Positions 15,803 through 63,795 of a stretch of DNA of 64,000 nucleotides are shown piece after piece. The DNA is taken from the NCBI GenBank assembly GCA_964402535.1, contig CAYOCH010000002.1, positions 6,661 through 70,660 on the forward strand, read 5' to 3'. The notes under the pieces are model-generated. The model did no database searches. It saw nothing but the letters and a program-made list of their open reading frames with translations, and was not told the DNA's origin. How positions within the stretch are numbered: the stretch's first letter is position 1; every line of letters starts with the position of its first letter. A program made the position numbers and the translations under genes. This DNA comes from an uncultured Candidatus Saccharibacteria bacterium. GTDB taxonomy: Bacteria > Patescibacteriota > Minisyncoccia > Phycocordibacterales > Phycocordibacteraceae.

Positions 15803-15816
15803 TGCGTCAGCCGGGG

Positions 15817-16556: not shown

Positions 16557-16569
16557 ACGGTATATTATC

Positions 16570-17442: not shown

Positions 17443-17449
17443 ACCGGAT

Positions 17450-17668: not shown

Positions 17669-17678
17669 CGTCTCGGAT

Positions 17679-18041: not shown

Positions 18042-18055
18042 TTGCGCGCGATTTA

Positions 18056-19418: not shown

Positions 19419-19461
19419 GTTGCCTAGTATAGCGCAGCGGCGAGGCAAAATAAAGGCGGAT

Positions 19462-19746
19462 CTAATGCTTCGTTGGATCCAATTCCCACCAGAATTTTTT
19501 GCTGAAGTTCTGCGCCTGGCTGCAGACGCTCTTTAAGTAGTAGAGGTCCTGTGTCGGAATCTTCTCAAGCGTGACGCCGAGGTGCGCCATCGTGATCGGC
19601 GGCAAGCCGTCCTGTTTGCGCGAATAATTGAGGTGGCGCTGAAAGAATCGCATCAGCTCGCCGCGCTCGGTCTGGCGCTTGCGACCCTTAGGCGCAGCTG
19701 CCGCCTTCTTTTCAAAGTCGGGGAGCAGGTCGCTTATCTTCTTCAT
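19462..19746 (-). CDS. hypothetical protein
   Basis: 94-aa ORF between def and murA on the same strand. Confidence 0.4.
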   Translation of the reverse strand: MKKISDLLPDFEKKAAAAPKGRKRQTERGELMRFFQRHLNYSRKQDGLPPITMAHLGVTLEKIPTQDLYYLKSVCSQAQNFSKKFWWELDPTKH

Positions 19747-19747
19747 A

Positions 19748-40877: not shown

Positions 40878-40933
40878 GAGCCGAGGCGAGCGGGGTTGCC
40901 TTTTAGGGGGAGAAATGCTAGATTGCAGGGACT

Positions 40934-41251
40934 ATGGAAGTGGCCGTGATCAAGACCGGTGGCAAGCAGTATGTCGTCTCAAAGGGCGACACTATCGCTA
41001 TTGAGAAGCTCCCGGGCGATCTTAAGAAGGGTGACACGGTTGTCTTTGGCGAGGTGCTCCTCGTCGACAACGGCTCGGACACGACCATCGGCGCGCCGGT
41101 TATCAAGGGCGCGGAGGTCAAGGGCACTGTTGTTCTCGCCGGGAAGGCGAAGAAGGTCGAGGTGGTGAAGTACAAGCCGAAGAGCCGCTATTTCAAGCGC
41201 AACGGCCACCGCCAGCCGGTCCTCAAAGTCAAAATTGATTCGATAGCGTAA
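40934..41251 (+). CDS. rplU: 50S ribosomal protein L21
   Basis: MEVAVIKTGGKQYVVSKGDTIAIEKL…KVEVVKYKPKSRYFKRNGHRQ. Confidence 0.9.
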   Translation: MEVAVIKTGGKQYVVSKGDTIAIEKLPGDLKKGDTVVFGEVLLVDNGSDTTIGAPVIKGAEVKGTVVLAGKAKKVEVVKYKPKSRYFKRNGHRQPVLKVKIDSIA

Positions 41252-41398
41252 CGCGCCAAAAGCTCGCGCTGCTGCGTTACGGGGCCCCGCAATTTCTTCC
41301 GTCGTACCTCTGAGTACGCCTCCAGAAATCGCATCCCCGTGCCTTGCATCTCGCGCTTTTGACTGCGTTTTGATAATACGCATCACTAACACTACGCA

Positions 41399-42805: not shown

Positions 42806-42823
42806 TCTGCAGACCAAAGAGAA

Positions 42824-42851
42824 AAAGAGGCGGAGAAATCCGCCTCTTTTG
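42824..42851 (+). terminator. intrinsic terminator after the helicase gene
   Basis: agaggcgg-agaaat-ccgcctct followed by TTTT. Confidence 0.6.
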
Positions 42852-43262
42852 CATTGTATATACGGCATATCTTGTCTCGTCGAGACGAGATAGCAAGATG
42901 ATACGCGGGTGGATGATAGTAGGCGTGTACGAATGCTGCGATCGTAGCTGTGAGGTGGTCTTGAGCATGGACAGTGCCGGCATGCGGAGGCAAATCTCGG
43001 AGAATCTCCGTGGAACCACGATGACTGTTGATGCTGGTGTCTTGAGGCTCAAAATTCGCGTATGAGGGGGGGTCACATTTTGCGCACTTTTGGCCGCAGC
43101 AAATGGAGCGAGTCGGTGGCTCGATATCTTGCAGATCAAACTTTGAGCTACCTGAGACAGTCGATGCCATCCGAAAATTTTGCTTGAAAAGTTATCCACT
43201 CATAAAGATGCAATGAACTGGAAATAATCAGTTAGTATCTGATTAGTTCCACTCTTGTACGG

Positions 43263-46200: not shown

Positions 46201-49200
46201 CGGCGAATCCGGGAAGCCTCTTCACCGTCTCTGGAGGGTCATCTGGTGAGCAGCAGGTGGCTTTGTTCACGAGTACCGGTTCAGCTAATACGAAGATCGC
46301 GATCGAAAATGCTGCGGTCGGCGGTCACAGGTGGGAATTGAGGTCAACATCGACCGGCACCTTCGATATCGTCGACAGAACCGCGCCTGCTCAGCGCTTC
46401 GTCATAGACACCGCCGGTAACGTCGGCATCGGCACGACCTCGCCGTGGGCGCAGCTCTCGGTGAACCCGAACGGGGTTACGGGCCCCGCGTTCGCAATCG
46501 GCAGCTCGACCGCCACGAACTTCGTCGTGACGAACGGCGGGCAGGTGGGTATCGGGACGACGAATCCGCAGCAGGCGCTGCATATCAGTACGACGAATAC
46601 GTATCAGGGCATCTTCTTGAACGGCAACGCAGCGCCCTCGATCGGGTTCGCCGGCTGGAGCGGGCTGACGCCCGCGTGGAAGGTGGGCATCAGCGGGTCG
46701 GCAGGGAGCAACTTGGCTATCAGCACCGGAGCGGCGAACGCCGACCTCTTCAACTTCACGACCGCGGGCAATCTCGGCATCGGGACGACCTCGCCGTGGG
46801 CGCAGCTCTCGGTGAACCCGAACGGGGTTACGGGCCCCGCCTTCGCGATCGGCTCCTCGACCGCGACGAACTTCGTCGTGACGAACGGCGGGCAGGTGGG
46901 GATCGGCACAAGCAATCCGACGCTCGGGACGGGCTCGACGACCCTCGAAGTCTACGGCAACGGCGGCGGCTTCACCCAGTACGGCTCGCTGTCTCTCGCC
47001 AACACTACGAACTCCGGCAGCTCCTATTCAGGCTCGGTCGACTACTACGGCGCTACCACGTTGTACGGCCAGATTCGCACGCACGTGATCACCGGCGGCC
47101 CGAGCGGTATGTCCCAGATCGAATTGTCGGCGCTGAATGGCGGCGCGCTGAATCAGGTGTTCACGGTCGGTGGCACCGGCAGCGTGACGGTCGGCACCGC
47201 AAACGGTGTGTCGAGCGGGTATCTTGGCGTCTACAACTCGGCCGGATACGGGCAGACGAATACCGGCATCATCTTGGGCAACATGCAGACGGGCGCCGGC
47301 TCGAATATCGGGGTCAACTTCGTCGACTACGCGCAGAACAACATCGCGCAGATCCTCGGCGTGTATCCGGGCGGCACCAAGGCCGGCAGCCTCGCGTTCT
47401 CGACCGGGAACGGCACGAGCCTGAACGAAGCGATGCGCATCACGAGCGCCGGCAATATCGGCATCGGTACCTCGACTCCCGCAGAGAAACTGGACGTCGC
47501 CGGGCGGCTCTCGATCGAGGATATCTCGGGCAATCCGCCGTCGGCGGCTCGGTCGTCATTTGTCTTCGAGAGCAATACGGACCCTCTCAATACGTCCGTC
47601 TCGGCGCTCTACGTGTATCCGAGGACCGACACCTCTAAGCGCTTCTATTTCGGCACGACGACGCACCAGTTCTATGCCGTCGACTTCTCGAACGTCTTGA
47701 GCATCACGGGTGTGACCAGTATCCAAGGCGCTCCCAACACGCAGGCGATCGATTTTTCATCGGCTGCGTATGACACGACCTACGGCACGGCGACGTTCGA
47801 CTTCAAGCCCACGGTCGATAACACCCGGCCGGTCGTGCTGCGCAACTCGCGCGTCACCGACAGCGCGACCTCGGTCGGCTTCGTGCTGAAGACGGTCAAT
47901 ACGCTCTCGAACGCATCGGCGAAGCTCCTGACGCTCGACAACAACACGACGAACCTTCTGACCGTCATGGCGAACGGCAATGTCGGCATCGGGACCACTT
48001 CTCCATTCGCTGACCTTTCGATTGGCGGGGCGAGCAACGGGACTAACCCGCTCTTCGCGGTCTCGACCTCGACTGCGAGCGCGACCTCGACCGCCTTCAT
48101 CATCGACAAGAACGGGAATGTCGGCATCGGGACGGCGAACCCGGGCCAGGCGCTCACGGTGAATGGCGAGATCAGCCTCTTGGGCGCATCTGGCTCGTCG
48201 CGCGGGCTCTTGGGCGCGCCGACATGGGACAACTCATACGTCTCGCTCCAGAACGGGTCGTTGAGTGAGAGCGCCGCGAACTCGGCGATCAACCAAAACA
48301 GCCTCGGTGACACGATCGTGAACGCCGCGACCGGCAGGGCGCTCCACCTGCGCGTCGGCAACACCGAGCAGATGAGCTTTAACGGCACCATCGCCGCATT
48401 CCAGAACGTGAACGTCGGCATCGGGACCACGAGCCCGGCAGACAATCTCGACGTATACGCGCCGAACAACGCGGGATTGGCGAAGATTGGACTGATAAGG
48501 GGCGATGGAGCGGGGTATCTGACGCAATGGACCTATGGCCCGGCGGGGAACGGATTCCTCGAGATCGGCGAGAACGAGGCGTTCAACAGCTCCGGCTCGG
48601 CGCGGGTACAGTTCAATACCGGAGCGCCGTCGTGGTTCCAGCAGTTCAACACCAACGTCGACAGCTATCAGATCGCACGCATCCCGGCGGGCGGCAGCAC
48701 GGCAAACGTGATGCTCTATATACAGAGTAACGGCAACGTCGGCATCGGCACCACCTCTCCCTCGCAGGCGCTCTCTGTGCAGGGCAATGGCCTCTTCTCG
48801 GGCAACATCACGGCAGCGAACATCACGGCGACTGGGACGGTGACTGCCGCGAATTTCTCCGGCCCAGGTGTAGATCCGCAAGGATATGGCAACTACTTGT
48901 CGATAAATCCTGCGACTCAGGATCTCAAATTCTCACGCGGCGGCTACTGGCTCAATTTCAATTTGACCAACAACACGCCTGTCATCACATCACAGAACAA
49001 TCTATTAGCCCTGCCTGGTATCACAGCGACATCCTCTGTATTTACGGGATACTCCGCGCAGCAAGATGTGAGTCGCTCAACGATCCTCTCGCTCACGCGG
49101 CAGAATACCGGCGCCCGCTTTCAACAAGCAGCAAACTTCATAATGGGCGGCTACGATTCGGCACAAACTGCGCATACGCAATTGGATATCGCCCTCACGA

Positions 49201-52200
49201 ACACCGCGACAAACGGCGTCCCAGACGCGACCGTGATGAGCCTCTTGGGCAACGGCAACGTCGGCATCGGTTCGACCACGCCTGCCGCGACGCTCGCGGT
49301 GCAGGGCAACGGCCTCTTCTCGGGCAACATCACAGCCGCGAACATCACTGCGACTGGGACGCTCTCGACAACCGGCGCGATCTCGGCACCGTACTTCGTC
49401 GCGACGAACGCGCTCGCAACGAGCACGTTTGCAGGCGGCATCACGGGGCCGGGCAGCTTTGCGGTGCAGCAGACGACTGGCTATGTCGGCATCGGGACGA
49501 CGTCGCCGACGAGTGCACTCTATGTCGCGGGCAATGGCCTCACATCAAGCGTTATCACGGCTGACGGAGGCGCGAACTCTATATTCGGCCTCACCGTGCG
49601 GGGCTATCAGAACTGGGGCTCGGGTGTCGCCTACACCAACCAGACTGCAAACCGTACCTACGTCACGTATCAGGACACGACAGGTAATTTCAATATCTAC
49701 GACAGCACGGTGGGGAATCGGGTCACGGTGACTTCTACCGGCAGCGTCGGCATCGGCACCACGACTCCGTTCTATAAGCTTGAGGTGAACGGCACGGTCG
49801 AGGTCGCGAACGGGAGCGGTCTTTATGCGCTCTCGTCGAGCGGCACGCACTACCGGCTCGTGGACCTCGACGCGAGCAACGTCGTGAACATGGGCCCCAA
49901 CGGCTCGATCCAGATCGCGAACGGCGCGCCCTCGAGCGCGATCTTCGTGCAGAACACTGGCTCGGTCGGGATAGGCACGAATAGCCCTCAAGTGGCGCTG
50001 CATGTAGGGCCGACGGCAGCCGGCGCGAATGAGGTCGCAAGATTCGAACATGCGAACGCTGCGGGTTCATCCGGCATCACGATCTATCAGAATGGGACAC
50101 TAAAGGGCTCTCTCGGTACTGGCGACTTCGTGGCGACTGGGGGAGCCAACACAGACTTCGGCATCCAGTCTGCTGGCAACATGCTGTTCGCTACTGGCGG
50201 TACTGTCCAAAAAATGGTGCTGACATCAGGCGGCAATGTCGGCATCGGGTCGACCTCGCCCACGAGCCTCTTGAGCGTCTATGGCGCGGCGGGGGCGGCC
50301 ACCGTCACGATCGGCTCGCCCTCGAACTCTGCGCTCTTGACGCTCGATCGCGGCTCGAACACGCAGAACGCGACCTTTAACCTCAACACCGCGGGCGTGA
50401 ATTACGGCTACTTCGGCCTCGACACGAGCGCCAACTCGGTGACGCTCGCCTCGTCGAACAACAACCAGCTCACGGTCTCAGCGCACAACGCAAACCTCCT
50501 CCTGCGCGGCGGCACGAGCAACGGCATCATCATGCAGACCAACGGCAGCGCCGAGGCGATGCGCGTCACAAGCGGCGGCAACGTCGGCATCGGGTCGTCG
50601 ACGCCAAGCGCTGTCCTCGCGGTGTCGAACACGGCCGCGACCGCCGCCAACACGCCGCTCTTCACGATCGCTTCGACGACGGGCGGCACCTCCACGTCAA
50701 GCTTGATGACCGTTCTCGCGAACGGCAACGTCGGGATAGGTACGAGCAATCCGACCTCGCCGCTGTATGTATCGGGTGCGCCTGCGTTGCAGGCGGTCAT
50801 CGGCACGACGGCGAACACGCAGAACTGGATCTCTATCATCAAGTCGAGCAGTCAGACTGCGAGCTTCGGCATCCGCGCCAATAACTACGGCTTCCTCCAG
50901 GCGAACACCGGGATGCAGATCGAGAACTCGTCGTCGCAACCCTATATCGTGTTTGACGGGGTGAACGAAGGGATCGGCACCACGTCGCCATCTGCGACGC
51001 TCGCAGTGCAGGGCAATGGCCTCTTCTCGGGCAACATCACGGCTGCGAACATCACCGCGACGGGGACGCTCTCGACCACAGGAGCGATCTCGGCGCCCTA
51101 CTTCGTCGCGACGTCGCCGACCGCGACCTCAACCTTCGCGGGCGGCGCGACGTTCGCGACGAGCGGCGGCAACGTCGGTATCGGGACAGCGAATCCAGGC
51201 TACGCACTCGACGTCGCCGGTCTTGCGGGCATCAATGGGCGAGTGAAGCTTGGCGCCGGCAACGATCAGGTGGACATTGCGAACGGTGGCCTCGTGCTAC
51301 ATGACAGCGGCACAACTGCATATGTCGAGGCGCAGAATTCTAACAAGCCGCTCGTTCTCGGTACCAGTAACGCGGATATTCAATTCACTACAGGATTCGG
51401 CGTCACAGAGCTGATGAGGATCAAAGCGAACGGGAATGTGGGGATCGGCACGTCGACGCCCGCGGCTACGCTCGCGGTCGCGATGGCGAGCACAACACCG
51501 GCCTTCTATATCGGCGCGGCAGGGAGCTCGTCGCCCGCCTTCTATGTCGGCAGCGCGAACGGGAGCGGGCTCGTGGGTATCGGCACCTCGGCACCCGACC
51601 ATCCGCTCCAGATCACCGGCAACCCGCTACTCACGAGCGCGGTCGTGCGTGTGGGCGCCGTCGCGCAGAACGTCTCTGCATTGCGCGTGAAGGGCTACTT
51701 CAACGGCTTGAACGGCAATGAGGATGCCGGCGGCGTGAACGTCTACAACTACAACTCGGCCACGGTGCAGGCGACGCTCGGCGGCGACAGCGGCCTCTTC
51801 GCCTCGCCGCGCGGCACCAACCTCGTCGCGGCGATCGTCCGCGGCCTCACCGGCCAGACAGCCAATCTGCAAGAGTGGCAGGATGTGAACGGCAATCCGC
51901 TCTCTGTGATTACGAGCAGCGGCAACCTCGGCGTGGGCACCTCCTCGCCCGCGCAGGCGCTCTCGGTCGCGGGGACGGGCTACTTTGCGACGAATGTCGG
52001 CATCGGCGTGGCGAACCCGGGCGTATATAGCCTTATGGTGCAGGCGCCGACGATCGGCGGCCAAGTCTTCGGCGTCACTACGAATTATGGCAACAGCGGC
52101 AAGTTCGAAGTCAGCTTCAACAGCGGCAACGACCCGTTCGCTCACTTGACTACTAAGCAGGGTGGACAGATCGCCTACTACGACATGTACGACTCGGTCG

Positions 52201-54920
52201 GCAAGGCGATGCAGCTTGGTCAGACATTCGGCAACGGGATCAACCTCTCGGCCTCGACGAGCATCCAGATCGGCATCGACTCGAACAATCTCGGCACCGG
52301 CATGTTCGAGATCGCAAGAGGGAACACCTGGAACGGTCGCGCGGGCGTCGACGGCACCTCGCTCTTCAAGATCCTCAACAACGGCAACGTCGGCATCAGC
52401 AACACGAATCCCTCAACCCTCCTCGACGTGAACGGCACGACCACGCTGCGCAACCAGGTGTCGGTGAATGGGGCGAGCTTCTACGACAACACCGGCAAGA
52501 TCGGGCTCGGGGTCAAGATGACGAGCGACCTCAAGACTGCGCTCTATGTCACTGACAACTTTGCGGCGATGAGCGCGATCAATGGCGCATACATCTCATC
52601 GGTCATATACGGCGCCAATACGCAGCAAGGGAAGAACGCGTACTATGGAGCCATCAATGACCCGACGCTCTCGGTGAATATCCAAAACGGTTCCGGGTTC
52701 GTGAGCTATCTCAATAACACCAACAACACCGGCACCAACATCAATCACGGCGGTCTCTTCTATCAGAATCAGACTATGAATGTGGCCAACACCGGAACCG
52801 ATTATGGCTACACCTCGTACAACTACATGCAGAGCAGCGGCAACCCGACCTCGCTTGCGAATTATGTCGGCTTCTACTCTCGCGGGCAATTCGCGGTCGC
52901 GCCGGCGACGACGACCAACCAGTACGACTTCTATGCCGACAACTTCGTGGGGACAGGTAACGGCGCGGTCGTGAACCGCTACGGCGTCTATATCGGCTTC
53001 AACAGCACCGGCATCACGAACCCCTACGGCATCTATCAAGCGAGCCCGACTGTCCAGAACTACTTCGGCGGCAACGTGGGGATCGGCACCACGACGCCCC
53101 TCGCGAAGCTCGCAGTTCTCGGCACGGCAGAGCAGCTCCGTCTCAACTACGACGCGACGAACTACGCGAGCTTCACGGTGAGCAGCGCCGGCACGCTCAC
53201 TATTGCCCCCACGTCGAACGTAATGAATATCTCGGCGACGACACTGAATACGAATACGATCAACGTCGCCACCGGCAACGTCATCAATTTCAACGGGGTA
53301 GGCTACCTCCGCAGCCTGGGCGGCGTGTTTAACATCAATGACACCAACACGAACAACATCCTTCTCGCCAATGGTGGCGGCAACGTCGGCATCGGCACGT
53401 CGACACCTCAAAACAAGCTGACGATCGTCGGCGGGATCGGCACGTTCGTTAACACCAACTCCTCCTACCGAACCGACTGGGATGCCGGCTATATGATCAA
53501 CGACAAGCTTGCGATATCGAAGTACGGCGCAATTGGCCAGCTCTCGATCGACGCACAGGGTCAGTTCGGTTCGGTAATGGTCGGAAATATCGGCAACTAT
53601 GTGAGCAATTTGCTTGTGAGCGGCAACGTGGGGATCGGGACCACGACGCCTGGGAAGAAGTTGGTTATAGATAGCGGCTCGAATGGCAATAGCTTTGCGG
53701 CAAGCTTCAGCAATGGTGGAGCGGGCAGACCATATTGGCTGTATAATTTCCAGCAGCAGAATGTGCAGTGGACTTCTGGATTCGACATTGGAGGGAATAC
53801 AAACGACTTCTCCATCAGCAATACGTACTCTGGAACCCGAGATGTTTTCCACATCGAAAACACGGCGCCTGCGAATAGTTTTAGAATCCAAGCAAATACT
53901 GGCAATATCGGTATCGGTACGACGAGCCCTTCGACCCTCTTACACCTCTACTCGGCGAGTGCGCCATCGATAACGATTGAGTCGTCTGCTGCTGGCGGCG
54001 GCGCGACCGATAGGCGTCTCACCATCAATCAGAACAATGGAGGTACGGCGACACTCACCGCGATGGAGGATGAGAACAGCTCAACTCAGGCGGCGTTCAT
54101 CATCAACGCGACTAACAATCCGAGCAACGCCGCGCTCGCGATTCGGCCCATATTCGATCTGCAGAACGGCGGCAACAGCAAGCTCTTCGTCACAGCCGCA
54201 GGCAATGTCGGCATCGGCAGTACGTCGCCGAATACGAAACTTGTTGTCTCTGACAACAGCGGCCAGACGCTCATCGGCAGCATGGCCGCTTCGTACGGAT
54301 CCATCGGTTTCCAGCCGACCCTCACCACGTCCAATTTCGCGCTCGCCGGCAACACATCTGAAACGATACTTAATACGCTCGCGGGCACGTCGCTCAAGTT
54401 CCGCGTAGCGAACGCAGACAAGATGGTTATGGACCAAAACGGCAATGTCGGCATCGGCACCACGACACCTAGCAATAAGCTGACCGTCGCAGGCGGAGCA
54501 GACTTCGGTACGGCATACAGCCCGACTGGACAGACGATACGTCTAGCGCCGAGCGGAACGTTTTCAGAAGCGGATGTCATTTCTCAAGCGGTAGGATTGT
54601 CGATCTTCGCTAATCCGCAGGCCACAGCGCAGCCGTCATGGATCGACCCGCTTATGAGTCTCCCGAACGGGGCAGGACTGATGTCGACGACGGGAGTCGA
54701 TCTGATTTTGTCCGCGTCATCTCATGCTGGCGGCGGCGTCACGATCGCCGGATATCATAACGGCGCTGCACATGACATCAAGTTCTTCAACGACGGCAAC
54801 GAACAGATGCGCCTCACGACCGCTGGTAATCTCGGCATCGGGACCTCGACGCCGGGCGCGACGATGAACGTCTACTCGGGCGCCGGGACGCCGTGGAATA
54901 CCTACCCATCAGGCACCTGA
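43263..54920 (+). CDS. giant membrane-anchored repeat protein (3885 aa): N-terminal excisionase-type HTH + TM anchor + tail-fibre-like 'GNVGIGTTSP' repeat region
   Basis: N-terminal …LISTRYAGKISGYTSAYLRRLARSGEIEGVQVGRVWMIRQASLIRFL (HTH_17-like). TM helix SLVVTVVVALVAGTIAAQGL. Then ~3700 aa of Gly/Thr/Ser/Asn-rich modules with recurrent GNVGIGTTSP(W/S)A…L(S/A)V and APYFVAT…ATSTFAGG motifs. Ends at TGA, in frame with the next ORF. Confidence 0.8.
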   Translation: MKSKRETKGLISTRYAGKISGYTSAYLRRLARSGEIEGVQVGRVWMIRQASLIRFLDEQAKRKEELSKERARVHAEEYLSHQAPVKRVVAKIAKPIPVKNVDVEGLVSSSRSLVVTVVVALVAGTIAAQGLTPTLTRIAAQPAAALNAGEQIAVATYETIHGLFTSTTSALADLFAPAPTIVVPAPQIRVNKPPLAVASSSPTQTKPKQVAIAPILPAPYKEPAPVSYPTYVTTINGVSQSYVDAAVSAMRSGILATVSGMLAPVAQQTVVNQTTIQQVNMIQRLGGLIVDNGQFNGGTFDKGTMTNGIAVNAENATFTNLSAGNVNLGASNLATTTVSGDLTLSGVLSANTKAVAPYFVATASNATSTFAGGLAVGTQRLVVDSTTGRVGIGTTSPAQTLEVSSAGDWSGINITTTAAGNHQAISFNHPEGYPFQIFTSYTGGRPDTQFYVGSSGTVFMSSNKLAVNGGAIPSASEAALSVVPVGTEPGLNVKNNVNGSSSLLVTNLGKVGLASTTPWAQLSVNPNGITGPAFAIGSSTATNFVVTNGGQVGIGTTSPAYTFDVTGSARMDNLAVSQSGGFRAVTGSWAGSPSGDNLSWLAFGWADNTKYHRIRTCGFSNDNLCFDLINPSTHYLSITGQLNSVYGATIGYAAGTAGPTNGLAVSGSTGIGTTSPWAQLSVNPNGITGPAFAIGSSTATNFVVTNGGNVGIGTTSPQSTFVVNGTSQFTNNAVFNAQISVSQITSPNNLLIAAGGPLVQIAGHLVPQVTGTYDLGSASAGWRNVYVTGNVGIGTTSPSATLAVQGNGLFSGNLTASGNTYIGATSANTLTVNALVNSDITPSTNAVNSLGSPSFYWKNVYAANVIANNISAASTTIAGTASATFTINSGNATADTLDSSLVFFRGTVVPNAVLGWDSTNKRFTMNQPLFIQNASNNGGGVISLAVQGLAGQTADVLRIASSTGTSYLNVTAGGNVGIGTANPGSLFTVSGGSSGEQQVALFTSTGSANTKIAIENAAVGGHRWELRSTSTGTFDIVDRTAPAQRFVIDTAGNVGIGTTSPWAQLSVNPNGVTGPAFAIGSSTATNFVVTNGGQVGIGTTNPQQALHISTTNTYQGIFLNGNAAPSIGFAGWSGLTPAWKVGISGSAGSNLAISTGAANADLFNFTTAGNLGIGTTSPWAQLSVNPNGVTGPAFAIGSSTATNFVVTNGGQVGIGTSNPTLGTGSTTLEVYGNGGGFTQYGSLSLANTTNSGSSYSGSVDYYGATTLYGQIRTHVITGGPSGMSQIELSALNGGALNQVFTVGGTGSVTVGTANGVSSGYLGVYNSAGYGQTNTGIILGNMQTGAGSNIGVNFVDYAQNNIAQILGVYPGGTKAGSLAFSTGNGTSLNEAMRITSAGNIGIGTSTPAEKLDVAGRLSIEDISGNPPSAARSSFVFESNTDPLNTSVSALYVYPRTDTSKRFYFGTTTHQFYAVDFSNVLSITGVTSIQGAPNTQAIDFSSAAYDTTYGTATFDFKPTVDNTRPVVLRNSRVTDSATSVGFVLKTVNTLSNASAKLLTLDNNTTNLLTVMANGNVGIGTTSPFADLSIGGASNGTNPLFAVSTSTASATSTAFIIDKNGNVGIGTANPGQALTVNGEISLLGASGSSRGLLGAPTWDNSYVSLQNGSLSESAANSAINQNSLGDTIVNAATGRALHLRVGNTEQMSFNGTIAAFQNVNVGIGTTSPADNLDVYAPNNAGLAKIGLIRGDGAGYLTQWTYGPAGNGFLEIGENEAFNSSGSARVQFNTGAPSWFQQFNTNVDSYQIARIPAGGSTANVMLYIQSNGNVGIGTTSPSQALSVQGNGLFSGNITAANITATGTVTAANFSGPGVDPQGYGNYLSINPATQDLKFSRGGYWLNFNLTNNTPVITSQNNLLALPGITATSSVFTGYSAQQDVSRSTILSLTRQNTGARFQQAANFIMGGYDSAQTAHTQLDIALTNTATNGVPDATVMSLLGNGNVGIGSTTPAATLAVQGNGLFSGNITAANITATGTLSTTGAISAPYFVATNALATSTFAGGITGPGSFAVQQTTGYVGIGTTSPTSALYVAGNGLTSSVITADGGANSIFGLTVRGYQNWGSGVAYTNQTANRTYVTYQDTTGNFNIYDSTVGNRVTVTSTGSVGIGTTTPFYKLEVNGTVEVANGSGLYALSSSGTHYRLVDLDASNVVNMGPNGSIQIANGAPSSAIFVQNTGSVGIGTNSPQVALHVGPTAAGANEVARFEHANAAGSSGITIYQNGTLKGSLGTGDFVATGGANTDFGIQSAGNMLFATGGTVQKMVLTSGGNVGIGSTSPTSLLSVYGAAGAATVTIGSPSNSALLTLDRGSNTQNATFNLNTAGVNYGYFGLDTSANSVTLASSNNNQLTVSAHNANLLLRGGTSNGIIMQTNGSAEAMRVTSGGNVGIGSSTPSAVLAVSNTAATAANTPLFTIASTTGGTSTSSLMTVLANGNVGIGTSNPTSPLYVSGAPALQAVIGTTANTQNWISIIKSSSQTASFGIRANNYGFLQANTGMQIENSSSQPYIVFDGVNEGIGTTSPSATLAVQGNGLFSGNITAANITATGTLSTTGAISAPYFVATSPTATSTFAGGATFATSGGNVGIGTANPGYALDVAGLAGINGRVKLGAGNDQVDIANGGLVLHDSGTTAYVEAQNSNKPLVLGTSNADIQFTTGFGVTELMRIKANGNVGIGTSTPAATLAVAMASTTPAFYIGAAGSSSPAFYVGSANGSGLVGIGTSAPDHPLQITGNPLLTSAVVRVGAVAQNVSALRVKGYFNGLNGNEDAGGVNVYNYNSATVQATLGGDSGLFASPRGTNLVAAIVRGLTGQTANLQEWQDVNGNPLSVITSSGNLGVGTSSPAQALSVAGTGYFATNVGIGVANPGVYSLMVQAPTIGGQVFGVTTNYGNSGKFEVSFNSGNDPFAHLTTKQGGQIAYYDMYDSVGKAMQLGQTFGNGINLSASTSIQIGIDSNNLGTGMFEIARGNTWNGRAGVDGTSLFKILNNGNVGISNTNPSTLLDVNGTTTLRNQVSVNGASFYDNTGKIGLGVKMTSDLKTALYVTDNFAAMSAINGAYISSVIYGANTQQGKNAYYGAINDPTLSVNIQNGSGFVSYLNNTNNTGTNINHGGLFYQNQTMNVANTGTDYGYTSYNYMQSSGNPTSLANYVGFYSRGQFAVAPATTTNQYDFYADNFVGTGNGAVVNRYGVYIGFNSTGITNPYGIYQASPTVQNYFGGNVGIGTTTPLAKLAVLGTAEQLRLNYDATNYASFTVSSAGTLTIAPTSNVMNISATTLNTNTINVATGNVINFNGVGYLRSLGGVFNINDTNTNNILLANGGGNVGIGTSTPQNKLTIVGGIGTFVNTNSSYRTDWDAGYMINDKLAISKYGAIGQLSIDAQGQFGSVMVGNIGNYVSNLLVSGNVGIGTTTPGKKLVIDSGSNGNSFAASFSNGGAGRPYWLYNFQQQNVQWTSGFDIGGNTNDFSISNTYSGTRDVFHIENTAPANSFRIQANTGNIGIGTTSPSTLLHLYSASAPSITIESSAAGGGATDRRLTINQNNGGTATLTAMEDENSSTQAAFIINATNNPSNAALAIRPIFDLQNGGNSKLFVTAAGNVGIGSTSPNTKLVVSDNSGQTLIGSMAASYGSIGFQPTLTTSNFALAGNTSETILNTLAGTSLKFRVANADKMVMDQNGNVGIGTTTPSNKLTVAGGADFGTAYSPTGQTIRLAPSGTFSEADVISQAVGLSIFANPQATAQPSWIDPLMSLPNGAGLMSTTGVDLILSASSHAGGGVTIAGYHNGAAHDIKFFNDGNEQMRLTTAGNLGIGTSTPGATMNVYSGAGTPWNTYPSGT
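44817..46920 (+). repeat. intragenic near-identical ~125-nt DNA repeats (family A: WAQLSVNPNG(I/V)TGPAFAIGSSTATNFVVTNGG(Q/N)VGIGT)
   Basis: Copies at ~44817, 45291, 46446 and 46797 (>90% nt identity between the last two), plus a fifth in the second ORF at ~56484. Confidence 0.7.
45652..51150 (+). repeat. intragenic ~75-150-nt repeats (family B: ATLAVQGNGLFSGNITAANITATGTLSTTGAISAPYFVAT…ATSTFAGG)
   Basis: Copies at ~45652, 48760, 49283 and 50993; the 49283 and 50993 copies are >90% identical over ~150 nt. Confidence 0.7.
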
Positions 54921-54968
54921 GCTGCGATCGTCAACCAGTCGCAGAACATTAGCGGCGGCAACGGCCTC

Positions 54969-57900
54969 GTGGTGGTCAACAAGTATCTCTCGGCCAACTC
55001 GACCACCTTCGAGGTTGGGACGATCAACGACAGCAACGGCGTCTACGCCTCATCGCTCAAGATCACGGGCGACAACGCGGTCCGCGTGCCGCTCACGCTC
55101 CAGCTCGGCAACTCGGGCGGCAACGTGACCAGTCTGCAGCTCGGCGCCAACACCTCGGTCGCGAGCGGCGCCGTGATCGCGAATATCTATAACGCCAGCA
55201 ATAATCCGGGCATCACGGTCGGTACGAGCCGCACCGACGGCACCGCCTTCACGGTCGCAAACGGGATCACTTATGACGCGAACAAGGTGCCGAACTCGGG
55301 CGGCACCGCGCTCCTCACCGTGCTCGGCGGCGGCAATGTTGGCGTGGGCACCACCTCGCCGTATGCGCTCCTCGCCCTCTCGAACTCAGTGTCGACGCCC
55401 GCTAACACGCCGTTCTTCACGATCTCGAGCACAACCGGCGGCACCTCTACCTCGACCCTCATGACCGTGCTCGCGAACGGGTACGTGGGCATCGGGACGG
55501 CGAGTCCGGGACGATTCCTGGATGTGGTGGCGAGTACCACTGCCGGGACAGAAATCGCGCGATTCACCAACACGCCTGTAAGCAATCGGTATATCTCTGT
55601 CCGCACGGTGGGCGCGTCTGATTTCGGCGGTGCGTACATCGGCGGGCCGATGTTGGACAGCAGTGATCCCCAGGTCATTTTCGGCAAGAATCTGTTACTG
55701 CCAAGTAACGGTGCGAATATAGCATTGGCTCAATCCAGCTTGACGAGTTCGTCTGCCGGGGGAACGGTGCTGACGAGCGGCGGATCGACGGCCCAAGCCG
55801 GGACAACTATCCAGCTGGGGAATAGCTCGACTTTCCAAGGGAATCTGTACGTTAAAGATGGGTCGGGGAACACGGTGATGACAGTCCAACCGACAGGTAA
55901 TGTCGGTATTGGTGCCACCGCACCAACCTCGCCCTTGACGGTCGTGACGCCCTCACTGTGGGGCAATGGGGCAGCAGGCGAGAATCTAGGCGTGACGGTC
56001 AACCCGTCGGCCAACGGCACGCTCTATGGGCTTTTTAACCTGACAAGTGTCACGGCCACGACCACGACCGGCAACGCGGCCGTCGTCGGCTCTCAGAACA
56101 CGGTGACGGCCACCAATAACAACGGCGGCAACACCACGCTCACCGCCGTCTCTGGGACGACGAACAACACCGGCGGTGGGAGCGCAAGCCAGATGACCGG
56201 CTTCTTTACGAATCCGGCGGTCTATAACACCGGTTCGTCGGTGAGCTCGCTCTATAACTTCTACGCAAACGACGTCTATCTCGGCAACGGCACCTCGCAG
56301 CCCTTCGGCTCGGTCAACAAGCTCTACGGCTATTATGTCGGTGCGCTCCAGAGCGCCTCGACCAACTACGGCCTCTTCTTCGCCAACAACCCGAACGGCG
56401 GCTCGATCGCCTCGGCCGCCTCGACCAACATCTCGATCCTGCCCGGCTCGGGCGGGAGCGTGGGGATCGGCACCACATCGCCGTGGGCACAACTTTCGGT
56501 CAACCCGAACGGGATCGCGGGCCCCGCCTTCGCGATCGGCTCCTCGACCGCGACGAACTTCGTCGTGACGAACGGCGGGAATGTGGGGATCAACACGGTT
56601 AACGCGACGAACGCTCTCACGTTCGGCGCGACAGGCGGCTATGAGATCTCGACGGAGCCGAACAATGCAAACGACCTCAACATCACGACGAACGCGACGA
56701 ACGGCGGCGGGATCTCTCTCGGTGCAAGAAACTCGAACAAATCGATCTATGTGAGTATCGGGGGTGGAGTCGGTATCGGCACGACCTCGCCGCGCGCCGC
56801 TCTTGAGATCGGCGGCAGCGCGAACCCGTCCGTCTACCTCAACTCGCAATATTCAACGCCGAGCACGATGCAGTGGTATATCCCGAACATCGCGACGATG
56901 TCGCTCGTCGCAAATGCGGTCGGGAACGAAAACGCAAACGCGCAGTGGGTCATGGACATGGGCTCTAGTGACGGCCTTACAGATTCTTTTGGCGTACTCC
57001 GCGCTAGTACCGTGGGTTCCACCCGCGTGCCGTTCTTCGTGGTGAACAACAACGGCAACACCGGCATCGGCACCACGACGCCGGGCGGCGACCTCTCGAT
57101 CGCAGGCAGCGCCGGCGGCACCAACCCGCTCTTCCTCATCTCTTCGAGTACCTCGGGCTACGCGACCTCGACCGCGTTCATGGTCGACAGTTACGGCAGC
57201 CTTGGCATCGGTCGGGTGCCGAACGCGCAGCTCTCAGTGGCTGGCGACGCCTATATCGGTACTGGCGCAGGCTCCTTCACCTTCACCTCCAACTACAACT
57301 TCAACGCACAAGGCACCAACTTCGGCCCGAGCCTCAACATCTCTGATGGCGATGCGACAAACCGCTGGGCCTCACTGCGCCTATCGACGGCGGGCGGTCA
57401 ATGGGAGATGGCCGACATGGGCGGGAACCTCGGATTCCTCCGCGGCTCGAACAATCGCGTAGTGATCGGTCGCTCCGATAGCAGCAATGCGAACCTGAAC
57501 GTCTACAACGACGCCAACACCATCCTCTTCACGGTTCAGCCGACGGGCTACGTCGGTATCGGTCCGAGCAACCCAGTTAATCAGCTCGACATCGGCATCG
57601 GGCCGTTCGCAACCGCCAAGACGGCCAACTTCAGCACCCTCAACATCGCGAACACGGCGACCTCCTCGTCGTCGTTCACGAAGACCGGCATGCAGATCTC
57701 ATCGACCGGCGCGTGGACAGGCCCGAACTACGGCCTCTATGTCTCGGCGGTCTCGGGCGGCACCAACAACTACGACGCGATCTTCAACGGCGGCGGCAAC
57801 GTCGGTATCGGCACCACGACGCCTTCGGATCTCTTGTCACTCGCTTCAACTAATCCGAGAATCGACCTGTTTGACACGAATGTTTCGGGTCCGGCGCGTG

Positions 57901-60281
57901 TCGCACTCACGGCGTATGGCGGAACCAATGCAAACGCTGCTCTGCAGACGCGTACGAATGTCCCGCTGATTTTCGGTGCAAATTCTAGTGCCAGCCAGCT
58001 CGTGCTCGCAACAAATGGCAACGTCGGCATCGGCACCACGACGCCCGGGAAGCCTCTCACTATCGCTGCTACGGGTTCCGGACCGTCTATCGGCACGGGA
58101 ATGCTTTCGCTCGTAGGTCCGCACAATACGACTGCTCGCCCTGAAATATTCTTCCAGAATTCCGCTGCCGGGACGACATATACCGGCGGTCTGCGCTGGT
58201 ATGACGGCAATGGCAACGAAGGGTGGGGTATTGAAAGCAATAGGGCCATAGGAACCGGTTATCTCGAATTCAACATTGCTGGCTCCAATAAGATGGTTCT
58301 CGACCCGTCTGGAAATGTCGGCATCGGCTCAACGAGCCCCACCTATACGCTTTCAGTTGACAAAGGCAGCGTCGGCAACCAGGCGGCATTCGGGCATACG
58401 GCCAAGGGATATCTCTATGACGACGGCACCAACTTCTGGCTTTCAAGTGCGGCGAGCGTGGCCGGCCCCGGCATAGGCTTTGCGCAATCTCTCGGTACCG
58501 CCTATCTGACCTATGCGACCGGGCAGGTAGGATTTACGATGGACAACTCTGGCAATGTCGGTATCGGCCGGAGCCCGGGCGTGCGGCTGGACGTGCAGGG
58601 TGTGAACAGCTCGTCGATCGTGCGGATTACGGCGGGCGGCGCGGGCGTCATACTCGGAGCCGACGTGGCGGGGAATGCGCTCTATGGGAACTCCGCCTAT
58701 GGCACCGCGCTGACCCTAAGCGCCGCGGGTGCCTTGCGCTTGAATGCCTATGGGGCGGGTACGCTCACGACCGATGCGAGTGGTAATGTCACGGCATCTT
58801 CCGATGCTCGCCTGAAGAATGTGGATGGAGGCTACACGCGCGGCCTCGAGGCGATACGCGGATTGTCGCCCCAGCTCTACCACTGGAACGCGGCGAGCGG
58901 ACTCGATCAGACGACGCAGTATGCCGGCTTTATCGCGCAGAACGTACGGCAGTACATTCCCGAGGCAGTCGGACAGACGCCGAGCGGTTATCTGACGCTC
59001 GCCGACCGTCCTATTGAAGCGGCGCTCGTGAATGCCGTGCAGCAGCTCGATAACCGAACGAGCTGGATCCAGGTAGCGAGCTCGAGCGCAACGACCACAC
59101 CGGTGCTCACCTTCGACCCGACGACAGGCCGCGTCGGCATCGGGTCGACCACGCCGACCCACACCCTCACGGTCGCAGGCGACGTCGGCGCGATCGCCTT
59201 CGTCAACACCTCGACACGAGACGCCAAGACTGACATCTCCTACGTGAACGCCTCGACGACCGAGGATATGCTGAACGCGCTCGTGAACCTCAAGGTCGCG
59301 ACCTATCACTACAAGGTCGAGCCCGAGACCGATCCGCTCCGCCTCGGCTTCATCGCAGAGGATGCAGCTAAGATCGCGCCCGAGATCCTCTCGCCGGACG
59401 GCAAGGGCGTCGACCTCTACAAGCTCGCGACCTTCACGCTCGCCGGCGTCCAGTCGCTCGCTGCGAAGGTCGATGTGCAAGGGACCAAGATCACCTCGCT
59501 TGAACAGCGCGTTGCGGCGCTCGAGAGCGGGGCAGTGTCGGTGGGCAGCTCGGCGCCGCAGCTCTCGACGAGCTCGCTCGCGAGCGCGATCTCGAGCATC
59601 ACGGAGGTCCTCAATATCGGCAAGCTCGTGTCGCAGACGTTCTATGCGGCGCAGGGCTTCTTCGACCGCTTGACGGCGGCGAACGCGACGATCGGTTCCT
59701 CGTCGACGCCGTCTGGCGTAACCTTCTTCGACACGGTTACCAAGCAGCCGTTCTGCTTCACGATCGCGAACGGAGTACCGACCACGACGCCGGGCGTCTG
59801 CGCCACCTCGAATGAGACGACCAATCCGTTCGCGACGTCGACACCGGCTGCTGCTGCAGCGACGAGCTCGCCGATCTCGGTGCTCGGCGCCAACCCGCTC
59901 CTGCTCGCGGTCGGGGCGACCTTCACCGACCCTGGCGTCACGGTCGCGAGCGGGGCAGCGGTGACCACATTCGTGAACGGCATACAGCAAGTGGTCTCAT
60001 CGACGACGATCAGCACGCTTAGTCCGACGACCTATATCATCACCTACCAGTCAACTGACGCCACGGGCGCACTCATATCGGCGACTCGCTCGGTGATAGT
60101 GGGGAACCCCGACGGCACGGTCTCGACCGGCGTTTCGACGACGACCGCTACCAGCACACCGATCACGATCCAGACGGTTGCGACGAGTACCACAGCCTCG
60201 TCTAGCCCGATCACGATCACTCCGGTCGACACCACCACAACCGCCTCAACGACATCCGCCACCTCAACTTCTGCACTTTAA
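54969..60281 (+). CDS. C-terminal part (1770 aa) of the giant repeat protein: repeats + two tandem S74 intramolecular-chaperone domains + DUF5011 Ig-like domain + Thr/Ser tail
   Basis: Same frame as 43263..54920 with no stop in the 48-nt gap; only a GTG start. Shares repeat families with the upstream ORF. S74-like domains: SDARLKNVDGGYTRGLEAIRGLSPQLYHW…GFIAQNVRQYIPEAV…GYLTLADRPIEAALVNAVQQLD (~58800-59090) and DAKTDISYVNAS…LKVATYHYK…LGFIAEDAAKIAPEIL…GVDLYKLATFTLAGVQSLAAKV…LEQRVAALE (~59220-59560). DUF5011-like …PGVTVASGAAVTTFVNGIQQV…TYIITYQSTDATGALISATRSVIV (~59880-60110). Confidence 0.75.
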   Translation: MVVNKYLSANSTTFEVGTINDSNGVYASSLKITGDNAVRVPLTLQLGNSGGNVTSLQLGANTSVASGAVIANIYNASNNPGITVGTSRTDGTAFTVANGITYDANKVPNSGGTALLTVLGGGNVGVGTTSPYALLALSNSVSTPANTPFFTISSTTGGTSTSTLMTVLANGYVGIGTASPGRFLDVVASTTAGTEIARFTNTPVSNRYISVRTVGASDFGGAYIGGPMLDSSDPQVIFGKNLLLPSNGANIALAQSSLTSSSAGGTVLTSGGSTAQAGTTIQLGNSSTFQGNLYVKDGSGNTVMTVQPTGNVGIGATAPTSPLTVVTPSLWGNGAAGENLGVTVNPSANGTLYGLFNLTSVTATTTTGNAAVVGSQNTVTATNNNGGNTTLTAVSGTTNNTGGGSASQMTGFFTNPAVYNTGSSVSSLYNFYANDVYLGNGTSQPFGSVNKLYGYYVGALQSASTNYGLFFANNPNGGSIASAASTNISILPGSGGSVGIGTTSPWAQLSVNPNGIAGPAFAIGSSTATNFVVTNGGNVGINTVNATNALTFGATGGYEISTEPNNANDLNITTNATNGGGISLGARNSNKSIYVSIGGGVGIGTTSPRAALEIGGSANPSVYLNSQYSTPSTMQWYIPNIATMSLVANAVGNENANAQWVMDMGSSDGLTDSFGVLRASTVGSTRVPFFVVNNNGNTGIGTTTPGGDLSIAGSAGGTNPLFLISSSTSGYATSTAFMVDSYGSLGIGRVPNAQLSVAGDAYIGTGAGSFTFTSNYNFNAQGTNFGPSLNISDGDATNRWASLRLSTAGGQWEMADMGGNLGFLRGSNNRVVIGRSDSSNANLNVYNDANTILFTVQPTGYVGIGPSNPVNQLDIGIGPFATAKTANFSTLNIANTATSSSSFTKTGMQISSTGAWTGPNYGLYVSAVSGGTNNYDAIFNGGGNVGIGTTTPSDLLSLASTNPRIDLFDTNVSGPARVALTAYGGTNANAALQTRTNVPLIFGANSSASQLVLATNGNVGIGTTTPGKPLTIAATGSGPSIGTGMLSLVGPHNTTARPEIFFQNSAAGTTYTGGLRWYDGNGNEGWGIESNRAIGTGYLEFNIAGSNKMVLDPSGNVGIGSTSPTYTLSVDKGSVGNQAAFGHTAKGYLYDDGTNFWLSSAASVAGPGIGFAQSLGTAYLTYATGQVGFTMDNSGNVGIGRSPGVRLDVQGVNSSSIVRITAGGAGVILGADVAGNALYGNSAYGTALTLSAAGALRLNAYGAGTLTTDASGNVTASSDARLKNVDGGYTRGLEAIRGLSPQLYHWNAASGLDQTTQYAGFIAQNVRQYIPEAVGQTPSGYLTLADRPIEAALVNAVQQLDNRTSWIQVASSSATTTPVLTFDPTTGRVGIGSTTPTHTLTVAGDVGAIAFVNTSTRDAKTDISYVNASTTEDMLNALVNLKVATYHYKVEPETDPLRLGFIAEDAAKIAPEILSPDGKGVDLYKLATFTLAGVQSLAAKVDVQGTKITSLEQRVAALESGAVSVGSSAPQLSTSSLASAISSITEVLNIGKLVSQTFYAAQGFFDRLTAANATIGSSSTPSGVTFFDTVTKQPFCFTIANGVPTTTPGVCATSNETTNPFATSTPAAAAATSSPISVLGANPLLLAVGATFTDPGVTVASGAAVTTFVNGIQQVVSSTTISTLSPTTYIITYQSTDATGALISATRSVIVGNPDGTVSTGVSTTTATSTPITIQTVATSTTASSSPITITPVDTTTTASTTSATSTSAL

Positions 60282-61801: not shown

Positions 61802-62434
61802 TTATGCCTCGTGACGGTTCACGAGCGCGGCGCGCAGCGTCTCGGCGTCGGCGTACTCGAGCTCGCTGCCGGTAGAGAGACCGCGGCCGAGGAGCGAGAT
61901 GGTGAGCGAGTCACGATAGGGTGCGAGCAGCTCGCGAACGCGGTCGCTCGTGTGCTCGCCCTCGCTCGTCGCTCCGAGCGCGAGCACGACCTCTTTTCCG
62001 CCAGAGGCGGACCCGCCTTTGGCGGGCAGGCTCGTCTTTAAATGTTTATCAACTCGTCGCACGAGCTCCTTCTCTCGGATCGCACCCTTGCCGGTCAGGG
62101 TGAGTACGCCGCCGAGAACGAAGTAGCGGCCCTTGTAGGTGCCGGCGCGCTCGATGGCGGCCAGGTCCTGATCCTTCTCGACTACCATGAGCTGCGCATC
62201 GTCGCGGTGCGTGTCGGTGCAGTAGTTGCAGACCGTTGCCATCGTGCCGTTGAAGTAGCGCATGCAGTCGGGGCACTGATGCACGTCCTTGCCGAGCGAA
62301 GCGATCAGCTCTGCGAGCCGTGCGCGGTCCGCGGCGTTTGAGGTGAGGAGGTGAAAGACGAAGCGCTTGGCCTGTCGCGGGCCGATGCCGGGCAGTTTAG
62401 CGAGCGCCTGTGCGAGTGCGTCGATGTGATCCAT
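61802..62434 (-). CDS. recR: recombination protein RecR
   Basis: HhH (LPGIGPRQAKR), C4 zinc finger (CPDC…CNYC), Toprim domain. Confidence 0.85.
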   Translation of the reverse strand: MDHIDALAQALAKLPGIGPRQAKRFVFHLLTSNAADRARLAELIASLGKDVHQCPDCMRYFNGTMATVCNYCTDTHRDDAQLMVVEKDQDLAAIERAGTYKGRYFVLGGVLTLTGKGAIREKELVRRVDKHLKTSLPAKGGSASGGKEVVLALGATSEGEHTSDRVRELLAPYRDSLTISLLGRGLSTGSELEYADAETLRAALVNRHEA

Positions 62435-63795
62435 TAAAACTCTGCAGCGAGGTCGCCGTAGCCGGAAGTGTCGACGGGCTGGAAGGTCGCGCGCTTCTCG
62501 TCGAAGAAGAGCTCGGCGGCGCCGGTCGGCCCGTTGCGGTGCTTCTCAACGAGGATCTCGGCGATATTAGGGCGATCGCTCTCGGGATTGCGCTTGTCAT
62601 CGCGGTGGATGAACATCACCACGTCGGCGTCCTGCTCGATCGAGCCGGAGTCGCGCAGGTCTGAGAGGCGTGGCTTGCCTCCGCGCTGCTCGACCGCGCG
62701 TGAGAGCTGCGAGAGGGCGATCACCGGCACCTGGAGCTCGCGCGCGAGGCCCTTCAGCGACCGCGAGATCTCGGTGACCTGCTGCACAAGCGAGTCCGAG
62801 GCCTTGGTGTTGGTCGGCGCCATGAGCTGCAGGTAGTCGACGACGATGAGGCCGATACCGCGCTCGCGCTTCAAGCGCCTCGCGACCGCGCGCATCGCGA
62901 GGATGTTGTTGCCTGGCTTGTCGTCGATGTAGATCGGCGCCTTCGAGAGCGACTCAAGCGCGTCGCGGATGCGGCTGAAGTCCTCCTCTTCGCGCACCTG
63001 GCCGGTTCTGAGCTTCCACGAGTTGACGAACGATTCGGCCGCGAGCATGCGGTCGATGAGCTGCTCTGAGCTCATCTCGAGCGAGAAGATGCCGACCGGC
63101 ACGTTGTGGCGGATCGCCGCGTTGCGGGCGATGTCGAGGGCGAGGGAGGTCTTACCCATCGATGGTCGCGCCGCGAGGATCACGAGGTCGGATGGATGGA
63201 AGCCGGAGAGAAGGTTGTCGAGGGTAGGGAAGCCGGAGGGCACGCCGCGGATGCCGCCCTCCTTGTGCGAGAGCGCCTCGAGACGCTCCCATGCCTCGTG
63301 CACCTTGTCGCCGATCGCGGTGAACTTGTGCGCAGCCGACTGGTCGCCGATCGCGTAGATCGACTTCTCAGCCTCGTCGAGGACCTCCATCGTCTCGCGC
63401 GACTCGTCGTAAGCAGACTCGGTGATGCCGTAAGCCGCGTCGATCAGCGAGCGCATCACGTGCTTGCGGGAGACGAGATCAGCGTAGTGGCTGTAGTTGC
63501 CGGGAGCCGGTGCAGAGCCCGCAAGCTCGGCCAAGTAGCTCCGGCCGCCGGCACGCTCGAGGAGCCCCTGATCCTGGAGGCGCTGTGAGAGCGAGAGCTG
63601 GTCGATCGGCTCGCCGCGCTGCGCGAGCTCGCCCATCGCGCCGAAGATGATCCGATGCTTCTCGGCGTAGAAGGAGTCGGGGCGGATGGTGTCAGAGACG
63701 TCGTGGATCGCGTCTGGCTTCAAGAGAAGGGCGCCGAGGAGCGCGCGTTCAGACTCGAGCGATTGGGGCGGGACGCGGTCCGCGGTGGTAGCCAT
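62434..63795 (-). CDS. dnaB: replicative DNA helicase DnaB
   Basis: Walker A (ARPSMGKTSLAL), …GIPSGFPTLDNLLSG…, RecA-like C-terminal domain. Confidence 0.9.
   Translation of the reverse strand: MATTADRVPPQSLESERALLGALLLKPDAIHDVSDTIRPDSFYAEKHRIIFGAMGELAQRGEPIDQLSLSQRLQDQGLLERAGGRSYLAELAGSAPAPGNYSHYADLVSRKHVMRSLIDAAYGITESAYDESRETMEVLDEAEKSIYAIGDQSAAHKFTAIGDKVHEAWERLEALSHKEGGIRGVPSGFPTLDNLLSGFHPSDLVILAARPSMGKTSLALDIARNAAIRHNVPVGIFSLEMSSEQLIDRMLAAESFVNSWKLRTGQVREEEDFSRIRDALESLSKAPIYIDDKPGNNILAMRAVARRLKRERGIGLIVVDYLQLMAPTNTKASDSLVQQVTEISRSLKGLARELQVPVIALSQLSRAVEQRGGKPRLSDLRDSGSIEQDADVVMFIHRDDKRNPESDRPNIAEILVEKHRNGPTGAAELFFDEKRATFQPVDTSGYGDLAAEF

Follow-up and report, generated by a model that had tools for sequence, protein, structure and literature searches.

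In a 64,000-nucleotide stretch of contig CAYOCH010000002.1, from an assembly of an uncultured Candidatus Saccharibacteria bacterium (GCA_964402535.1, positions 6,661 to 70,660 of the forward strand; hereafter the window), two very long open reading frames (ORFs) follow one another on the + strand in a single frame. ORF1 (43263..54920) begins with ATG, encodes 3885 amino acids (aa) and terminates on the TGA at 54918-54920. ORF2 (54969..60281) is listed with a GTG start and encodes 1770 aa, and the start positions of both ORFs are divisible by 3. An initial annotation of this DNA, whose coordinates for the two ORFs and the TGA are confirmed in the sequence, had proposed that they form one gene with a premature stop. 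Our analysis leads to the same reading, to which we assign a probability of roughly 0.62: that a real nonsense substitution, either recent or present as a strain variant, interrupts what was ancestrally a single gene of 5672 codons at 43263-60281. What carries this reading is the way the domains of the protein are divided between the two ORFs, the position of the stop inside a repeat module, and the uninterrupted genes of syntenic orthologs and other relatives.

Measured from stop to stop, the frame holds 3894 open codons before the TGA, which lies in the context GGC ACC TGA GCT, and 1786 after it, with the second open stretch beginning at 54921. The 48-nt spacer between the listed ORFs (54921..54968) contains no stop, and the peptide over the junction reads exactly ...PSGT*AAIVNQSQNISGGNGLVVVNKYLSANS... 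By our own arithmetic from base composition, a stop-free run of 16 codons at 60% GC has a chance probability of about 0.6. The spacer alone is little evidence; the remaining evidence is far beyond chance. Third-position GC is 0.80 in ORF1 and 0.78 in ORF2, and it reaches 0.89 over the 480 nt that follow the TGA (54921-55400), a coding signature that runs unbroken over the stop. The two ORFs also draw on the same repeat families. A 62-nt exact repeat at 56518-56579 in ORF2 has a second copy in ORF1 (46785-46900), and the peptide SPWAQLSVNPNGI.GPAFAIGSSTATNFVVTNGG is common to both. Over the whole 5672-codon giant frame, the count of in-frame TGA codons is one.

The division of domains between the two ORFs is complementary. 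The protein encoded by ORF1, the 5' part of the interrupted gene, is on record exactly (P0083) and ends at the TGA. It opens with an HTH_17-like segment (aa 16-59; 43308..43439, +; PF12728, 22.7 bits, under the cut-off of 27), presumably cytoplasmic, which is followed by a transmembrane-like segment at aa ~105-132 (43575..43658, +). This is the one strongly hydrophobic segment that a Kyte-Doolittle scan (19-aa window, threshold 1.8) finds in the whole 5672-aa frame, and ORF2 has none; neither the hydropathy scan nor the translation reveals an export signal, a hydrophobic N-terminus or an anchor in ORF2. The 3' part of the gene (54921..60281, +; record P0233, annotated from GTG 54969) instead carries the C-terminal domains. 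PF13884 matches it in two stretches with 71.1 bits against a cut-off of 22; the ortholog at the locus labelled L008, which is described below, scores 73.1 bits. The first stretch, the better match of the two, is a Peptidase_S74 domain that begins SSDARLKNV (58800..58970, +; residues 1294-1350 counted from 54921). The second is a Peptidase_S74-like domain that begins STRDAKTDI (approximate limits 59214..59390, +), aligns with the MYRF ICA domain 7dc3 and is conserved in L008. Read by eye, the motifs SDARLK and STRDAK at the two domain starts, which may hold the catalytic Ser and Lys, have the counterparts SDERLK and STRSAK in L008. A bacterial surface Ig-like domain lies near the C-terminus (59874..60101, +; PF16403, 36.2 bits, cut-off 27), and a Thr/Ser-rich tail follows it at the C-terminal end. 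Between head and tail, around 40 repeat modules run through both ORFs, each opened by a GxVGIGTxxP-type motif; these were mapped as 40 G-x-[VIL]-G-I-G-T-like motifs spaced 41-325 residues apart. The S74 and Ig-like domains are confined to ORF2 and the hydrophobic anchor to ORF1. Because the anchor is found only in ORF1 and S74 only in ORF2, it is the fused frame that would make a coherent architecture, predicted to consist of a cytoplasmic head, a membrane anchor, a very long extracellular stalk and a C-terminal chaperone. Neither ORF alone has it.

The stop falls within this repetitive stalk, 31 residues past the motif GNLGIGTSTP (54825..54854, +, from the motif map) and inside the 169-residue module that the motif opens. 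We searched with phmmer, using a 165-residue query around the stop, against the proteins of the collected relatives and the remainder of the giant protein, and kept alignments with at least 15 residues on each side of the stop and a domain E-value below about 0.01. In 43 homologous modules of other proteins the alignment passes unbroken over the stop position. Together with third-position GC, these alignments continue through the 48-nt spacer (+ strand) and identify it as a coding continuation of the module, in agreement with the initial annotation, which had described it as ordinary repeat-protein sequence. The residues opposite the stop vary between modules (G, S, A, Y, N, V, T, D and others) and are never Cys. 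Since the aligned position is variable and never Cys, the alignments do not point to a selenocysteine or cysteine site at 54918-54920. For the same reason, its variability, the ancestral codon is not inferable.

In relatives, the two halves of the gene stand together. A syntenic giant gene, convergent on RecR-DnaB, is present in three of 80 loci anchored on DnaB (L008, L014 and L016). The L008 ortholog is a single uninterrupted ORF of 2663 aa (11967..19958, -) that adjoins RecR-DnaB. It shares 46% identity with residues 1-404 of ORF1 at its N-terminus and 50% with the C-terminal region of ORF2 at its C-terminus, and the one chain carries the HTH-like segment together with the two S74 domains. 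In L016 the frame stays open over 3132 codons or more, as far as a similar C-terminus. The L014 gene, whose C-terminus is 41% identical to that of ORF2 over 893 aa, has at least 900 open codons before its contig runs out. In a full HMMER search of 1.84 billion representatives, the N-terminal 400 residues of ORF1 matched 75 proteins at E<=1e-30. Among the 57 matches listed with at least 1500 aa, an HTH-like N-terminus was found in 49, and 27 combine it with S74 in one polypeptide, with S74 a few hundred residues from the C-terminus. Anchor and S74 are therefore joined in one polypeptide in L008 and in 27 relatives; in the window gene, the TGA separates them. Five relatives that lack S74 were examined: two run off contig ends (P0085, P0094), one is frameshifted (P0097) and two have other C-termini (P0178, P0175). 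The other open stretches of at least 1000 codons in 1.39 Mb of related and fetched loci, 12 in number, are all free of a single-stop split, and the TGA split is therefore peculiar to this genome and not conserved.

The initial annotation had suggested comparing orthologous genes for a sense codon at the stop. At the level of architecture this comparison held, with one ORF in L008; at the level of codons it gave no comparable site. The central repeats of L008, L014 and L016 do not align with the junction module, and tblastn of the junction against the 80 DnaB-anchored Kaiserbacteria loci returned nothing. A 369-aa junction query found only repeat-level matches of 276-641 aa among proteins, an 801-aa junction query, back-translated and run against genome and metagenome contigs, found zero relatives, and the 1301-aa fragment that ends at the stop had protein matches of 25-30% identity at best. 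The word-indexed protein search seems limited to targets of about 0.65-1.75 times the query length and missed the window's own fragment, and its negatives are weak. Within the collections searched, the central ~3000 residues seem to have no close relative (25-30% identity at best).

It is very improbable that ORF1 and ORF2 are two genuine genes that were always separate, with ORF2 translated from its own GTG. The public record does list two proteins, both from one 94,941-bp NCBI contig (ORF2 from GTG 54969) and each a singleton cluster at 90% identity, and the absence of a Shine-Dalgarno (SD) motif before the GTG is normal in this genome. However, the end of ORF1 and the start of ORF2 would then both fall in the middle of a module, ORF2 would be without signal or anchor and ORF1 without C-terminal domains, the orthologs are single ORFs, and no promoter-like site was found on the + strand in 54300-55500. 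The initial annotation had also counted the GTG start with no ribosome-binding site as an argument for a single gene. The description is correct, but the argument is uninformative because most genes in the window lack an SD motif: an SD-like motif precedes only 7 of 31 putative starts (ORF2's own start excluded), and the conserved ATG of ORF1 has none. Many starts in the window have a TAnnnT box, resembling a -10 element, 5-12 nt before the ATG (for example at 63796-63815, 10690-10710 and 30775-30791), a pattern suggestive of mRNAs with no leader, or a very short one, in this bacterium.

Another reading has UGA decoded as an amino acid, either as selenocysteine or as Gly or Trp under genetic codes 25 or 4. 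Gracilibacteria and Absconditabacteria, both Patescibacteria, reassign UGA, which gives the idea some precedent. In this organism, however, TGA is a normal terminator. It ends 15 of the 46 long non-overlapping ORFs in the window, about a third, and 89% of the window is covered by ORFs of 150 codons or more. In GreA the terminal TGA coincides exactly with the end of the C-terminal Pfam domain, and DNA polymerase III delta' is likewise terminated by TGA at full domain length. These ends, GreA and the lone in-frame TGA in 5672 codons exclude a code in which UGA is sense, as in some other Patescibacteria. Selenocysteine fares no better. No SECIS-like or stimulatory fold was detected, the 101 nt of 54900-55000 being no stabler than shuffled sequences (z = 0.26), the position is variable and never Cys in the 43 modules, there is no tRNA-Sec within the 64-kb window, and the tRNAs of the window (Glu-CUC and a tRNA interrupted by a group I intron) have no UCA anticodon. 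Amino acid decoding of this UGA is largely refuted, and we regard it as having only the slightest chance of being correct.

The intron-containing tRNA (~16.6-16.9 kb) was also considered as a UGA suppressor and rejected, as no splice register yields the anticodon UCA. The group I intron (16625-16862; RF00028, 64 bits) lies within the anticodon loop of a tRNA gene at 16590-16905 (-) that ARAGORN misses. We assembled the split tRNA by hand, with the acceptor stem UCCGGUG/CGCCGGA and the T-arm GTAGG-TTCGAGT-CCTAC; when the P1 helix is drawn with a U.G pair at the splice site, the loop reads CUGUUAA. The tRNA is probably tRNA-Asn(GUU), or alternatively Thr(UGU).

Whether the TGA is present in the DNA of the organism could be addressed with a separately assembled contig. 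Mapping of exact 31-mer repeats predicted a Logan contig of about 51014..56547, and a look-up of the predicted 1301-aa fragment succeeded. Logan contig SRR5161805_77015 (L082) corresponds to window 51014..56544 with 100% identity over 5.5 kb, TGA included, and its gene calls give one fragment ending at the TGA and a second starting at GTG 54969. Another contig of run SRR5161805 (L001) matches window 39385..44918 with 100% identity and represents the same strain. The source of the run is a copper-mine tailings dam in Brazil (PMC7327174). Between 51043 and 56518 there are no 31-mer repeats, and the assembly path through the stop is thus unbranched. Since two separate assemblies agree and the local path is unbranched, an assembly artefact is an unlikely source of the TGA. 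Elsewhere the giant gene holds exact repeats of 35-62 nt (44889-44932, 46434-46900, 48777-48814, 51006-51043 and 56518-56579), which recur between modules and between ORF1 and ORF2 and coincide with the ends of the Logan contigs (44918 for L001; 51014-56544 for L082). Such giant genes fragment in short-read assemblies because of these internal repeats.

The initial annotation had offered a sequencing or assembly error as one cause of the stop. The identical, separately assembled contig speaks against the assembly half of this proposal and leaves room for a read-level error or a polymorphism. The TGA would then have arisen as an artefact of sequencing or consensus calling, or as a minority allele that the assemblers fixed, and the organism, or most of its cells, would carry an intact gene for 5672 aa. 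We consider this unlikely. In its favor, ORF2 is wholly intact, giant repeat genes in metagenome-assembled genomes (MAGs) are often damaged, many related MAGs have very low coverage (1-5x by their contig names), and the relative P0097 is broken by a frameshift. Against it stand the base-for-base agreement of the NCBI and Logan contigs over 5.5 kb and the position of the site, which is outside homopolymers and outside repeats of at least 31 nt; moreover, substitution errors seldom survive an Illumina consensus. The frameshift in P0097 (3973 aa) lies at about 21750-21990 of L083 (ENA ERZ27237442 k141_317020). There the repeat-protein sequence carries on in a different frame, leaving an annotated C-terminus of out-of-frame junk, and in assemblies this giant-gene family shows damage of a second kind.

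Given a real TGA, the split could still be functional. Useful read-through of the UGA, or termination followed by reinitiation at GTG 54969, 48 nt on, would yield a short anchored stalk plus either the full-length fibre or a second subunit. Consistent with this, the coding signature persists unchanged through the 1786 open codons of ORF2, most genes start without an SD motif and atypical initiation may thus be easy, and no terminator was found past the TGA, hence ORF2 would be co-transcribed. Yet the site has neither a stimulatory structure nor a known RNA motif; an Rfam scan of 54700-55200 with E-values up to 10 gave only two chance snoRNA matches (E > 2). The stop lies within a module and not at a domain border, and no such split occurs in L008, L016, L014 or the other long ORFs of relatives. 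A reinitiated ORF2 would have no export signal, and the base after the TGA is G, which is not known as the leakiest context in E. coli. A functional split is, by our estimate, about as unlikely as an artefact. The programmed read-through raised in the initial annotation finds no backing in structure, in Rfam matches or in conservation among relatives, and TGA is a normal stop here. A related variant, in which the UGA is tolerated or used and partial read-through or reinitiation 48 nt downstream supplies a short stalk together with the full-length fibre, seems to us doubtful to a somewhat greater degree. Should it be true, it would offer an episymbiotic bacterium a simple way of tuning the length or density of its surface fibres.

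Phase variation, another cause proposed initially, would make the site an on/off switch for the fibre, a type of control for which surface adhesins are a classical example. Here, however, neither a homopolymer nor a short tandem repeat nor a flanking inverted repeat lies at the TGA, only short chance repeats occurring in 54700-55200, and the lesion is an in-frame base substitution, which is not a product of slippage, instead of a frameshift. The likelihood of such a switch is minimal, on a par with that of amino acid decoding. Two original genes, UGA recoding and phase variation can all be regarded as close to excluded.

Among the four causes that had been offered for the stop, recent pseudogenisation, or a strain variant, fits best. 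We propose that a single base substitution created the TGA within a repeat module of a giant cell-surface fibre gene. The ancestor codon could have been TGG, GGA, CGA, AGA, TCA, TTA or TGC/TGT, and which of them it was cannot be told. The gene is a large mutational target, as 1270 of its 51039 possible substitutions create a stop. Translation would end at 54920 and leave an anchored stalk without the distal domains and without the C-terminal chaperone used for trimer folding. ORF2 would either not be made or be useless alone, and would not be exported even if initiated, because it lacks both an export signal and an anchor; background leakage at the UGA may still yield traces of the full-length protein. 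The 1786 downstream codons are fully open and show no second lesion, which suggests that the nonsense event is recent or a segregating variant. From the intact 5.4-kb stretch we roughly estimate that neutral divergence since inactivation would be well under ~0.5%, assuming that about 1/8 of neutral changes are disruptive (2.5% stops plus an assumed 10% indels).

Several points weigh against a recent nonsense substitution. Both assemblies may use the same reads and could then share a systematic read error or a mix of minority and majority alleles. An intact ORF2 would be equally expected under selection on a read-through or reinitiated product. Family members that lack S74 (P0178, P0175) indicate that a stalk without the chaperone is not necessarily useless. 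Finally, searches of proteins, contigs and loci found neither a close strain or species nor a codon-level ortholog.

The giant gene lies among ordinary chromosomal genes, which encode RecR, DnaB, a MurE-like ligase, penicillin-binding proteins, MreB, GreA, RRF, a class II aminoacyl-tRNA synthetase, RmuC and a DEAD helicase. The DnaB (62434..63795, -) shares up to 91% identity with its counterparts in many MAGs that carry the labels Candidatus Kaiserbacteria, Paceibacterota or Patescibacteria, and the bacterium is read here as one of the Candidatus Kaiserbacteria (Patescibacteria). Two divergent ORFs resembling IS200/Y1 transposases, at 40149-40850 (+) and 60319-61038 (-) and 36% identical to each other, bracket L21, the DEAD helicase and the giant gene. 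In L008, RecR directly abuts the giant gene; in the window, 60319-61775 lies between them and contains the Y1-like ORF and an ORF without a Pfam match. Because of the direct junction in L008, this segment looks like an insertion relative to that locus.

For annotation, the recorded proteins of 3885 aa and 1770 aa are best treated as parts of a single gene, 5672 codons long and interrupted, that encodes a tail-fibre-like surface protein, and surveys of giant-protein architectures in Patescibacteria should not count ORF1 and ORF2 as two families. Should the stop prove real in most cells, a very large surface fibre, plausibly used for host attachment, has recently been lost from this population or is polymorphic in it, and the locus would be a small piece of evidence for rapid turnover of giant surface-fibre genes. 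No new translational mechanism is suggested by these data, and the interruption is most likely an ordinary premature stop.

The domains of the window gene recall several known systems. Phage tailspikes and tail fibres, such as the K1F endosialidase and T5 pb1, have Peptidase_S74 as their intramolecular chaperone. As in those proteins, the PF13884 domains of the window gene are C-terminal and follow a long repetitive stalk; each starts with a putative Ser...Lys motif. Unlike phage fibres, the window protein is cellular, membrane-anchored and 5672 aa long, with two tandem S74 domains that are followed by further domains. Trimerisation and self-cleavage after folding, features of this chaperone family, are potential properties of the S74 domains of the window gene. 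By analogy with the phage proteins, in which S74 acts as a folding chaperone, loss of the C-terminal part should matter for ORF1. Weak alignments over short stretches to window 58683-59639 (+) come from MYRF ICA with its beta-helical stalk (7dc3, E = 8e-4) and from a 'cell wall surface anchor family protein' (8ojn, E = 6e-3), in which sequence alignment alone matches GRVGIGTxxP..L.V.G and an S74-type segment. The two structures could serve as templates for the module-opening GRVGIGTxxP..L.V.G repeat.

Another likeness is to the giant 'tail fiber domain-containing' proteins of Patescibacteria and Paceibacterota, and names among the matches include 'tail fiber domain-containing protein [Candidatus Paceibacterota]'. 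The window gene resembles them in its HTH-like N-terminus, single transmembrane segment, GxVGIGTxxP repeats and S74, and by these features its protein belongs to the tail-fibre-like giant surface proteins of Patescibacteria, with bona fide S74 domains. It differs from them in that its polypeptide is cut by a TGA. In this respect the window gene is like the young pseudogenes of bacterial genomes and MAGs, with a single in-frame stop, an intact downstream part, no recoding signals and uninterrupted relatives, and it is set apart from ordinary examples only by the size of the gene, 17 kb.

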